64,000 nt of DNA. Source: Escherichia coli (GTDB lineage: Bacteria; Pseudomonadota; Gammaproteobacteria; Enterobacterales; Enterobacteriaceae). The position numbers were made by a program, and so were the translations under genes. Location of the stretch: assembly GCF_003018255.1 (NCBI RefSeq), contig NZ_CP027440.1; one strand, given 5' to 3'. Under the pieces are notes generated by a model, which had not been told where the DNA came from, did not search any database, and saw only the letters and a list, made by a program, of their open reading frames with translations. Numbering within the stretch: position 1 is the first letter of the stretch; each line of letters starts with the position of its first letter. This document shows positions 24,808 to 54,510 of this stretch, in pieces.

Positions 24808-27699
<2,892 letters not shown>

Positions 27700-27703
<4 letters not shown>

Positions 27704-28587
27704 GCTTCCTCGGTTGTCGTCTGTTGTTGCGGATTTTTCACCGCACGCACATGCTCTTCCAGTTCAATAAACGACGGACGTTCGCTGGAATAGAGCGTTT
27801 TGCGACCAAACTCAACGGCGATAGGCGGTGCGTAACCGTTCAGATTAGATAGCAGTGTGACTTTGACGCACTGCATCATTTTGCTGGTTTCGGCGCTTTT
27901 CTGACGTAAAACACTCGCTAATGGGGAAATAAATCCGTAAGCCAATAAAATACCGAGGAAAGTCCCCACCATCGCATGTGCGATAAGCGCCCCCAGCTCG
28001 GCGGCAGGACGATCGGCTGAACCTAACGCGTGAACGACCCCCATTACAGCCGCAACAATACCAAACGCCGGAAGTGAGTCCCCGACCAGCGCCAGACTGT
28101 TCGCCGGGACTTCTGCCTCGCTTTCGTGCGTCTCAATCTCTTCATCCATCAGAGCTTCGATTTCGAAGGTGTTCATGTGACCGCTGATAATCAGGCGCAG
28201 ATAATCGACGATAAATTCAAGCATGACGCTATCCGCAAGGATGCGTGGGTAGCTGGCGAAGATCTCGCTCTCACGGGGATTTTCAATATCACGTTCCAGC
28301 GAAAACATCCCCATCTGCCGCGATTTCGCCATCAACCGATAAAGCAGAGCCAGCAGATCCATATACATTGCTTTGGTGTATTTGGAGCGACGAAACAGCA
28401 ACGGCAGCGCCTTCAGCGTGCCTTTAATCGCTTTGCCATTATTGCCGACGATAAACGACCCAATCCCTGCACCGGCAATAATCACCAGTTCAGCGGGTTG
28501 ATAGAGTGCTCCAAGGCTTCCACCGGTCATCAAATAACCGCCGAAAACTGTACCGAGAACAACCAGGTAACCTAATAAGATAAGCAC
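27700..28587 (-). CDS. motA: Flagellar motor stator protein MotA
   Basis: 295 aa, [23 protein letters not shown]; its stop overlaps the motB start. Confidence 0.97.
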
Positions 28588-28655
28588 GACATCATCCTTC
28601 CACTGTTGACCATGACAGGATGTTCAGTCGTCAGGCGTTAACACGCGATAGGGGC

Positions 28656-28688
28656 AAAAAAAAGCAGCGGTACGTCGTTACCGCTGCT
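28656..28688 (-). terminator. Rho-independent terminator downstream of flhC (end of the flhDC operon)
   Basis: Stem agcagcggta (28663-28672) / taccgctgct (28679-28688); the plus-strand A-run 28656-28663 gives a T-run after the stem on the minus strand. Confidence 0.7.
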
Positions 28689-28713
28689 GGAATGTTTCGC
28701 CACACCGTATCAG

Positions 28714-29292
28714 TTAAACAGCCTGTACTCTCTGTTCATCCAGCAGTTGTGGGATAATATCGGCAGGATTCTGGGAAAGTTTACGTCTTTTTACTGCCCG
28801 GGATGGCGGCTGACATAAGCTGCAGGCAAAGCTGCCAACAGGCTGGTGAGCGTGGGTAATAAAATTGCCGCCGCAGCAGTTGCAGCTGGAAAGTTGCAGT
28901 AATCCACTTTCAACAAACCGCACCAATGTCCAGGCACGGGTTAATGCCAGCAGCGGTCCCTCTTCTGCTTGCGGGCACTGTTCAAGGTATAAACGGTAGG
29001 CTTTGATCACCGCATCGACGCCATTACACAAACCGGTTTTCAGTAAAAACTGCCATGCGTTACAGAACATCGAAGCATGAACGTTTTGTTCCCAGGTCAT
29101 AAACCAGTCGGTTGAGAATGGCAGCATGCCTTTCGGCGGTGGGCTTCCGCGCAGTTCTTTATAGAGTTTTATCAGGCGTCCGCGACTTAACTGTGTTTCG
29201 CTTTCCAGCATCTGCAAACGAGCGCCCAGGGTGATCAATTCCATTGCCAGCTGAATATCCCGCGCTTCCTGAACAATGCTTTTTTCACTCAT
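28714..29292 (-). CDS. flhC: Flagellar master regulator subunit FlhC
   Basis: 192 aa, [27 protein letters not shown]; zinc-binding Cys cluster near the C-terminus. Confidence 0.98.
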
Positions 29293-29294
29293 GA

Positions 29295-29645
29295 TCAGGC
29301 CCTTTTCTTGCGCAGCGCTTCTTCAGGCTGATTAACATCATTCAGCAAGCGTGTTGAGAGCATGATGCCGGTATGAATTTGCTGGAGATCGTCAACGCGG
29401 GAATCTTGCGTCAACTGAGTAATCGTCTGGTGACTGTCAAAACGGAAGTGACAAACCAGTTGATTGGTTTCTGCCAGCTTAACCATTTGCGGAAGAGTCA
29501 GTGCCGCTAACGTTGTCGCCATTTCTTCATTTATGCCGAGACGAAACATAGCGGACGCTTTGTCCTGAACAATCAGACGCTGTGCAAGTAGTAAATATGA
29601 CAAGTTGATGTCATAAATGTGTTTCAGCAACTCGGAGGTATGCAT
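29295..29645 (-). CDS. flhD: Flagellar master regulator subunit FlhD
   Basis: ORF 29295-29654; start placed at [22 protein letters not shown] (116 aa). Confidence 0.96.
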
Positions 29646-30425
29646 TATTCCCACCCAGAATAACCAACTTTATTTTTATGCGGTCTCACCGCACCCCGTG
29701 ATGTCGCCGGGAAGCCCCGGTAAAAAATAATTAGCATTAGAATAGTTGCGATAAGCTGCAATAGGCAGAGCCCCTTTGTGGGATTTAATAAGTCCTTACA
29801 AATAGAAGGGGTTCTTTACACTTATCTAAGATTTTTCCTAAATCGACGCAACTTTACTCGTCACTACACGCACATACAACGGAGGGGGGCTGCGATTTTC
29901 AATAATGTGTGATGCAGATCACACAAAACGCTCAATTACTTAACATAAATGTATAAGTCATACTTTTGTTTTGGGTGTATTTCAATCTGTTAAAAAGTTT
30001 TTCGCGACGCTAGCAAGCAAAAATGAAACAGGAATAATAGAAATGGGATGTTGCGCACAGTTAAAATAACTCACCGTAAATAATCATCTGCTATAAATAA
30101 TTGCTTTAATGCAATACCAGATAAGCTATTTTTAAACAGACACTTACTGCACAACAAACTAATTAAATACAAAGAAAGGCAACAATCAACTTAATGTTGA
30201 TAAAATGTTTTACATATATTAACCACTTGTTTAATATGGAGAATCAGTACATTATTTTCTTATAATTACAGTTGAAATCATATGATCACCGAGAGTGATT
30301 GATTAATTGTATTTACTAATAATCACGCTAATATTTACCTGTTTGACTGAGTTGGGATTGCGTCGTTTCTCCATTAGGAGTAAAGCTTTAATGTCACCTG
30401 AAGTTCACAGAATAAGGAACAGGTT
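29646..30425. promoter_or_regulatory. flhDC promoter and long leader region, divergent from uspC
   Basis: About 780 bp AT-rich non-coding region between the divergent flhD and uspC starts; in E. coli it is known to carry the class 1 promoter, a long 5' UTR and many regulator binding sites; individual sites were not mapped here. Confidence 0.7.
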
Positions 30426-30854
30426 ATGAGCTATAGCAATATTCTTGTCGCTGTTGCGGTTACACCGGAAAGTCAGCAACTGCTGGCAAAAGCGGTATCT
30501 ATCGCCAGGCCAGTAAAGGGACACATCAGTTTAATTACTCTCGCTTCCGACCCGGAAATGTACAATCAATTAGCTGCGCCGATGCTTGAAGATTTACGCA
30601 GCGTGATGCAGGAAGAAACGCAAAGCTTTCTTGATAAGTTAATTCAGGATGCGGGGTATCCCGTTGACAAGACGTTTATTGCCTACGGTGAGTTAAGCGA
30701 ACATATTCTGGAAGTTTGTCGCAAATATCATTTCGATTTGGTGATTTGCGGTAATCACAATCACAGTTTCTTTTCGCGAGCATCCTGCTCGGCGAAAAGA
30801 GTGATTGCCTCAAGTGAGGTCGATGTGCTGTTAGTTCCACTTACGGGAGATTAA
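30426..30854 (+). CDS. uspC: Universal stress protein C
   Basis: 142 aa, MSYSNILVAVAVTPESQQLLAKAVSIARP, UspA-family fold. Confidence 0.93.
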   Translation: MSYSNILVAVAVTPESQQLLAKAVSIARPVKGHISLITLASDPEMYNQLAAPMLEDLRSVMQEETQSFLDKLIQDAGYPVDKTFIAYGELSEHILEVCRKYHFDLVICGNHNHSFFSRASCSAKRVIASSEVDVLLVPLTGD

Positions 30855-30860
30855 CCGCTC

Positions 30861-34216
<3,356 letters not shown>

Positions 34217-52770: not shown

Positions 52771-54510
52771 TTAACCCTGCAGCAGAGACAGAACCTGCTG
52801 CGGTACCTGGTTAGCTTTTGCCAGCACGGAGTTACCGGCCTGCTGGATGATCTGCGCTTTCGACATGTTGGACACTTCGGTCGCATAGTCGGCGTCCTGA
52901 ATACGGGACTGCGCTTCGGACAGGTTGGTAGTGGTGTTGTTCAGGTTGGTGACCGCGGAATCCAGACGGTTTTGCACCGCACCGAGGGAGGAGCGGAATT
53001 TGTCGATGGAGCTGATGGCTTCGTCCAGAGCTTTCAGTGGATCGGCGGTGGTTGCAGCTTTAGTTTCAGCGTCAGTAGTAAAATTACCATCCGCTGAAAC
53101 ATAGACTGCTTTACCTGAACCATTGGTCACAGTTCCGTCTTTTTGCAAAAACAGATTGGTTGTATTATCGGTAGTCAGTGAACCATCAGCTTTGGTGTAA
53201 GCGTCTTCAAAAACTGTACCTGTGTATTGTTGTACTATACCTTTACTATCAACTTTAATATCGCCTGCGCTGGTACCAGTAGCTCCAACATCAACTGTGA
53301 ATCCTGTGGACTTAGTTGCCGATTGAAGAGACTCAGCACTCATTCTTGCATTTGCTACAGTGATTGCACCAGAAGTAGTAGCATCAGTACCGCCATCCAG
53401 AGTGAAGGTTGTTTCATCTTCAGTTGTAATTACCGTAGATACGGCACCCGGTGTGCCTGTTGTATGCCAGTTTTTAGTCAGTGCATCAAGAGTGGCTGCT
53501 TTGACAGTCCCAGCATTGTTTTGAGTGAGGTTACCATCTACGTCAATAAATAGTTCTGAACCATCTTTCGCGGTAATTTTACCGTCGCTAGCCAATACAA
53601 CGTCAATTGACGTAGAACCAATTTTAACGTTTAAGTTAGCAGTATCGCCCGCTTTTGGTGTCAGGAAGGATTGTAACTGAGCACTGTTACTATCACCAGA
53701 ATTTGTACCAGCTGCAATAGTTGCACTATATGTAAAATCACCTGTAGCGCTGTTGTATGTATAATCTGTAGCTGTTGGCGATCCAAAACCATTTGCAATT
53801 GTGGCATTAACTTTTGCGTTATTAGCCAAACTCGCAATTACATCTGCAGCTGTAGATGTTTTCAGGCCTGCGCTAACAGTATAGGTAACTGTACCATTAG
53901 CATCAGCAGTACCTGGAGCCAAGAGTTGAGCTGCTGCCAAATCAGATTTAGTCGCTGCAGTATTAGCCACAGCCCCGCCACCATTCACATTAAACCCACT
54001 CAGCCCCAGCGTATCAGAGTCAATTTTCTTCAGATCAATAGTGATAGTCTGGCCGTCATTCGCACCAACCTGAATTTTCATTGAACCGTCTTTCGCCAGT
54101 ACGTTCACGCCGTTGAACTGGGTCTGGCCAGATACGCGGTCAATTTCGTCCAGACGGGATTTGATTTCGTCCTGAATGGAGTCCAGATCCGAATCGGAGT
54201 TAGTCCCGGTAGAAGCCTGAACCGTCAGTTCACGGATACGCTGTAAGTTGTTGTTGATTTCGGACAGCGCGCCTTCGGTGGTCTGTGCAACGGAGATACC
54301 GTCGTTGGCGTTACGTGCAGCTTGAGTCAGACCTTTAATGTTAGAAGTAAAACGGTTAGCAATCGCCTGACCTGCGGCGTCATCCTTCGCGCTGTTAATA
54401 CGCAAGCCAGAAGACAGACGCTCGATAGAACTCGACAGCGCAGACTGGTTCTTGTTGATATTATTTTGAGTGATCAGCGAGAGGCTGTTGGTATTAATGA
54501 CTTGTGCCAT
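52771..54510 (-). CDS. fliC: Flagellin (H antigen); long allele with a divergent central domain
   Basis: 579 aa; N-terminal about 175 aa (MAQVINTNSLSLITQNNINKNQSALSSSIERLSSGLRINSAKDDAAGQAIANRF...) and C-terminal about 90 aa (...LAKANQVPQQVLSLLQG) are the conserved D0/D1 segments; the central part is Thr/Ala/Gly/Asn-rich and unlike K-12. Confidence 0.97.
   Translation of the reverse strand: MAQVINTNSLSLITQNNINKNQSALSSSIERLSSGLRINSAKDDAAGQAIANRFTSNIKGLTQAARNANDGISVAQTTEGALSEINNNLQRIRELTVQASTGTNSDSDLDSIQDEIKSRLDEIDRVSGQTQFNGVNVLAKDGSMKIQVGANDGQTITIDLKKIDSDTLGLSGFNVNGGGAVANTAATKSDLAAAQLLAPGTADANGTVTYTVSAGLKTSTAADVIASLANNAKVNATIANGFGSPTATDYTYNSATGDFTYSATIAAGTNSGDSNSAQLQSFLTPKAGDTANLNVKIGSTSIDVVLASDGKITAKDGSELFIDVDGNLTQNNAGTVKAATLDALTKNWHTTGTPGAVSTVITTEDETTFTLDGGTDATTSGAITVANARMSAESLQSATKSTGFTVDVGATGTSAGDIKVDSKGIVQQYTGTVFEDAYTKADGSLTTDNTTNLFLQKDGTVTNGSGKAVYVSADGNFTTDAETKAATTADPLKALDEAISSIDKFRSSLGAVQNRLDSAVTNLNNTTTNLSEAQSRIQDADYATEVSNMSKAQIIQQAGNSVLAKANQVPQQVLSLLQG

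Follow-up and report, generated by a model that had tools for sequence, protein, structure and literature searches.

An uninterrupted, apparently native flhDC control region in Escherichia coli

The DNA analyzed here (hereafter "the window") is a 64,000-nucleotide stretch of an E. coli genome that includes the flagellar master operon flhDC and the divergently oriented uspC gene. On the minus strand, flhD (29295 to 29645; 116 aa from an ATG at 29645) is followed by flhC (28714 to 29292; 192 aa). Both open reading frames are intact and their products are identical to FlhD and FlhC of strain MG1655, FlhC also being identical to WP_001291603.1 of the nearest genome. On the plus strand, uspC (30426 to 30854; 142 aa, ATG at 30426) encodes a protein identical to WP_000122432.1. 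The genes lie in the standard order flhEAB-cheZYBR-tap-tar-cheWA-motBA-flhCD / uspC-otsAB-araHGF, and order and orientation around flhDC and uspC are the same as in annotated genomes, as befits the class I flagellar control region. The mot, che, fliA, fliZ and fliC genes are intact alongside flhDC; all flagellar and chemotaxis products, as well as FliA and FliZ, are full length. The interval between flhD and uspC (29646-30425) measures exactly 780 bp, with a GC content of 0.35 (0.305 between 29900 and 30400) against 0.506 for the window as a whole; thus, the "about 780 bp of AT-rich sequence" given in a preliminary description of this DNA was accurate.

The flhDp start site, promoter hexamers and protein-binding sites were positioned by homology with K-12 and from the literature, and all assignments below are to be read as predicted. 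Transcription would start at 29844, the equivalent of MG1655 coordinate 1978395 (the AsflhD end), which defines a 198-nt leader in MG1655. One extra base at 29783 brings the putative leader to 199 nt in the window (29646 to 29844, minus strand). With the start at 29844, the TTAA sequence used by IS5 falls at -96 to -99, as published (PMC5100188). Further upstream, an AT-rich zone of about 30% GC (29940 to 30320) coincides with the stretch, from -96 to about -476, in which activating insertions are found in K-12.

The interval was compared with the MG1655 reference locus (NC_000913.3, 1978198-1979752), whose annotation includes IS1H (768 bp, insA5/insB5) in the flhD-uspC gap. The alignment falls into two blocks, which share 8 bases of the window and are separated by the IS1 in MG1655. 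The sole gap corresponds to IS1H plus the 8-bp target duplication CATAAATG, that is, the one clean gap that the preliminary description had anticipated. The MG1655 junctions read ...AACATAAATG|GGTAATGACTCC...GCAGCATCACC|CATAAATGTA..., with CATAAATG flanking IS1H on both sides, whereas the window has a single copy of this target, at 29944 to 29951, and no insert. None of the marks of an IS1-activated allele (a 768-bp IS1 with its terminal inverted repeats, insA/insB and an 8-9 bp duplication) was found in the window. The two loci share flanking genes, promoter layout, position of the CRP site and leader. Removing IS1 and one CATAAATG copy from MG1655 leaves 779 bp, as compared to 780 bp in the window, at 95.5% identity; the 35 differences comprise 34 substitutions and one 1-nt indel. 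With 35 of 780 positions differing, the region is not simply the K-12 sequence minus its IS.

A similar picture emerged from W3110 (NC_007779.1), which has the same background sequence as MG1655 at this locus and an IS5-family transposase gene in the flhD-uspC intergenic region. Here the only gap is an IS5-sized insert of about 1.2 kb at TTAA, with junctions ...ACTTAA|GGAAGGTGCG...CGCACCTTCC|TTAACATAAATG (also TTAACAT...). The equivalent site in the window (TTAA, 29940 to 29943) is empty and single-copy. The IS5 and IS1 targets are each present once and unduplicated, as TTAACATAAATG at 29940, and the duplicated-target strings TTAATTAA and CATAAATGCATAAATG are absent from the window. Accordingly, the window shows neither the approximately 1.2 kb insert at TTAA nor the 4-bp duplication of the IS5-activated alleles of the W3110, RP437 and MC1000 type. 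The statement that MG1655 and W3110 carry IS1 or IS5 at this position is borne out by both records.

Lack of a full-length element leaves room for a more discreet trace: the interval could hide the remains of a decayed IS, a terminal repeat on its own or a miniature element. The repeat search found no IS-terminus-like inverted repeats in the interval; what it did find were inverted repeats of 10-22 nt with 73-91% complementarity, scattered in AT-rich DNA, and these are all that a hidden remnant could claim in its favor. IS1 and IS5 sequences taken from the MG1655 and W3110 records matched the whole 64-kb window at chance level only (best E values 0.14 and 0.22, over 15-18 nt). Open reading frames of 30 aa or more number seven in the interval, the longest having 44 aa, and Pfam gave no transposase-family match for any of them. 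A permissive Rfam scan (E up to 1) of positions 27500-31500 gave no match, AsflhD, MotR and the leader being apparently outside the coverage of the library scanned. Alignment with 18 other E. coli alleles of 775-782 bp showed colinearity base for base and no extra segment. Finally, a 1,560-bp stretch running from flhD to uspC matched 5,422 of 5,426 complete E. coli genomes, at a median of one place per genome (maximum two) and with two plasmid matches only. With its one place per genome and its near absence from plasmids, the interval behaves unlike any IS fragment. Taken together, these data make a hidden remnant exceedingly improbable and uphold the earlier assertion that the region bears no IS1 or IS5 signatures, be they sequence similarity (in the entire 64 kb), terminal inverted repeats or transposase reading frames.

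One could also envisage that the strain does harbor an IS at flhDC and that the element was collapsed or skipped during assembly. IS copies often cause assembly breaks, and cultures mixed for an IS at this locus are documented, as in a mutant stock of the Keio collection (PMC11237407). However, collapse of an IS tends to leave its mark as a contig break or a second copy of the target. No such mark is present here: across the three insertion sites known for this locus, the sequence is seamless and the target occurs once at each, and the arrangement matches the contiguous one of more than 5,200 complete genomes. We regard an assembly artefact as most improbable. It should be kept in mind that a single assembly represents a consensus in which a minority of IS-bearing cells would not appear.

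How often the region is interrupted in the species was estimated with two short queries, since long queries merge pieces separated by less than about 1.3 kb and would bridge an IS. Scoring as contiguous any genome with at least 80% of the query in one place, the 29800-30100 segment was contiguous in 5246 of 5412 genomes and the 30050-30400 segment in 5370 of 5417. Subtracting records from places gives 146 and 40, respectively; hence about 186 genomes among 5,426 (approximately 3.4%) have a split region, a count that possibly misses insertions in 29800-29860, 30050-30100 and 30330-30400. The uninterrupted flhD-uspC arrangement seen in the window is therefore the species norm, shared by approximately 97% of sequenced E. 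coli. The interrupted genomes, among the sampled matches listed, are mostly laboratory strains. These counts, along with the 18 alleles of 775-782 bp, fit the earlier proposal that the window shows the native, uninterrupted state. We conclude that the interval is almost certainly the native flhDC/uspC divergent control region of a non-K-12 E. coli, and none of the data were at odds with an IS-free state. As such, it is an already known and ordinary arrangement.

Two pig isolates illustrate the alternative. In EC19, a 768-bp IS1 occupies the equivalent of the site GTTGCGCAC (-206 to -214; 30050 to 30058), which is empty in the window; the two alignment blocks overlap by 9 bp, corresponding to a 9-bp duplication. 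EC291 has lost its entire control region along with most of flhD (equivalent to approximately 29550-30440), with an IS1A in their place. The window has neither of these events at the same locus. EC19 and EC291 show that, outside the laboratory as well, IS elements target the AT-rich DNA upstream from flhDC.

Besides lacking an IS, the window differs from K-12 in the presumptive promoter itself. The -10 hexamer (29851 to 29856, minus strand) reads TAAAGT, the variable base, 29854, being A in the window and C in MG1655. TACAGT is found in K-12 and most E. coli: the 31-mer containing it occurs in 4595 genomes, against 347 of 5426 (6.4%, a minority) for its TAAAGT counterpart. Together with a start at 29844, this hexamer would make up a weak σ70 promoter. 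A consensus promoter scan of the minus strand failed to pick up flhDp, which is consistent with an activator-dependent promoter but lends it no independent support.

A CRP site, TGTGA-N6-TCACA, is predicted at 29908 to 29923, its center lying at -71.5 relative to a start some 198 nt upstream from the flhD ATG. We take this position to be an established feature of flhDp; Soutourina et al. reportedly placed the CRP site there in 1999. Both half-sites match the consensus in the window, whereas one of them does not in MG1655: a change of base 29908 yields CGTGA/TCACG (TCACG on the flhD strand). Of 5426 genomes, 4469 carry the window-type 31-mer and 413, for the most part laboratory K-12 strains, carry that of K-12. 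Thus, the K-12 reference is the outlier at the CRP site and the perfect palindrome of the window is the species norm. By these counts, the K-12 reference is atypical here on two scores, the IS and the CRP half-site.

Differences from K-12 also concentrate in the leader, where 11 of the 35 are clustered in about 50 nt (29764-29812), so that the two haplotypes are distinct; in all, 11 leader haplotypes were counted among 19 alleles. The variable patch lies within a predicted long hairpin (+19 to +95; 29750 to 29826, minus strand) with AAGGAC near its tip. The predicted architecture is alike in the window and K-12, with the first 104 nt at -22.6 kcal/mol in the window versus -16.1 kcal/mol. In a hand-drawn version of the hairpin scored on 10 haplotypes, 97.2% of the cells were paired, as compared to 35-49% for slid controls. 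Only one double-sided change was seen, and shuffle controls (130-359 of 500) were not significant. RNAalifold, run on 10 leader haplotypes, recovered the outer stem; the inner stem was missed owing to the register shift that indels introduce. As a model, the data are consistent with a conserved hairpin, for which we claim no covariation support. The leader is invariant from +1 to about +30 in 10 out of 10 haplotypes. The window contains AGGA (at +6) as well as AAGGAC (at about +48); a long leader with GGA motifs and a start-proximal sequence are thus conserved. We take the GGA motifs to be putative CsrA sites, and the start-proximal sequence to be RcsAB-box-like.

Could the window derive from a K-12 strain of the IS-free, poorly motile type, such as BW25113 or a non-motile MG1655 stock, in which case its lack of an IS would mark a laboratory lineage? 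The identity of the FlhD and FlhC proteins to those of K-12 would fit such an origin. Yet the 780 bp differ at 35 positions from the IS-stripped MG1655 sequence, the base that marks K-12 at the CRP site is absent, and the fliC allele is H28-like, K-12-type strains being labelled H48. Furthermore, over 25 kb the window is closest, at 99.2-99.5%, to genomes of human clinical and poultry isolates. A K-12 derivative is thus extremely unlikely. With 35 differences, the -10 hexamer and the CRP site among them, the source strain is neither K-12 nor a K-12 laboratory derivative, in line with the preferred reading of a native control region from elsewhere in the species.

The closest IS-free alleles of the interval are those of strain 104 (chicken, CP029164) and JNEC-KY177 (human, AP045173). 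Both are 780 bp long and 99.74% identical to the window over the intergenic region, from which they differ by two bases; they share its -10 allele, CRP site and leader haplotype. Over a broader 25-kb segment (17500-42499), the best match among 5,426 complete E. coli genomes is 99.5%, so that the source genome is not one of them, and only 69 genomes reach at least 99%. Clinical isolates from humans in Japan and the USA rank first, and isolates from pigs and poultry, one of them an APEC O78:H4 strain, come next. The source lineage is thus poorly represented among the complete assemblies.

The fliC gene (52771-54510, minus strand) is intact and encodes a 579 aa, H28-like flagellin, 99.3% identical to that of an O8:H28 strain and 100% identical to those of JNE23-011 and JNE112863. 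Its protein identity to the flagellin of JNEC-KY177, the top match over the 25-kb segment, is only about 60%, whereas the flanks are more than 99% identical. On this comparison, the pattern indicates recombinational replacement of fliC.

What the absence of an IS might mean for expression can be considered in light of work on K-12. In PMC5100188, PMC5493358 and PMC11237407, IS1 or IS5 inserted between -96 and about -476 is described as raising flhDC expression and motility, as stated in the preliminary description; the insertion range is given in PMC5100188 with reference to Barker 2004, Lee & Park 2013 and Fahrner & Berg 2015. TTAA at -96 to -99 is an IS5 hot-spot (PMC5100188). PMC5100188 and PMC5493358 present AT-rich, easily melted DNA as the preferred IS target, and PMC5493358 includes a map of destabilized duplex (SIDD) in the zone upstream from flhDC. 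Activating insertions carry a cost, for example reduced survival of acid shock (PMC11237407). The operon is activated by CRP and repressed by H-NS, LrhA, OmpR, RcsAB, Fur, IHF and MatA; its leader is subject to control by CsrA, McaS, ArcZ, OmrA/B and OxyS, and an antisense RNA, AsflhD, is also described (PMC5493358, PMC11237407, PMC3634460).

Transposed to the window, these findings suggest the following scheme. The control region would be made up of the weak promoter, the consensus CRP site at -71.5, about 480 bp of upstream DNA at approximately 30% GC and the 199-nt leader. Transcription would depend on CRP-cAMP and be kept low by repressors occupying the AT-rich DNA upstream as well as the surroundings of the start site, while the leader would be targeted by CsrA and by several small RNAs. 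In K-12, an IS1 or IS5 landing between -96 and about -476 would lift repression, and motility would rise as a result. The window is in the unswitched state, no such event having taken place in it. The known hot-spots, namely the TTAA at 29940 and the AT-rich DNA extending to about 30320, would be open to activating insertions under soft-agar selection or during storage in stabs.

The preliminary description had considered the uninterrupted state relevant to any motility phenotype of the source strain. This stands insofar as the control region is indeed uninterrupted. Since absence of an IS is the default state, it says little about a strain's motility: in ECOR isolates, spreading tracked PfliC activity and FlgM secretion, not PflhD activity (PMC5289928). 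The IS-free state does not predict the motility of the source strain. For users of this genome, the finding amounts to a flagellar master operon with a wild-type control region, and adds little to the annotation.

The combination of TAAAGT, a consensus CRP site and a more stable predicted hairpin raises the question of whether the basal flhDC level of this lineage may differ, with no IS involved, from that of most E. coli. Support for such a difference is limited to allele counts, and we consider it unlikely. If true, it would point to a route by which point mutations tune motility in wild strains.

Two further features of the uspC side deserve mention. The consensus promoter scan returned three sites on the plus strand, as compared to 2.8 expected by chance. 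The best σ70-like match in the interval (30237-30266, plus strand; TGGAGA-18-TATAAT, 10 of 12 positions) faces uspC and is a candidate promoter for this gene, such sites being as numerous as chance predicts. Separately, the uspC-proximal half of the interval (30050-30400), which is also the most AT-rich, stands out from its surroundings by a much greater diversity. In this segment, identity to the window reaches 99% or more in only 67 genomes and lies between 90 and 95% in 2429; across the flhD-uspC stretch as a whole, almost every genome is at 95% or higher.
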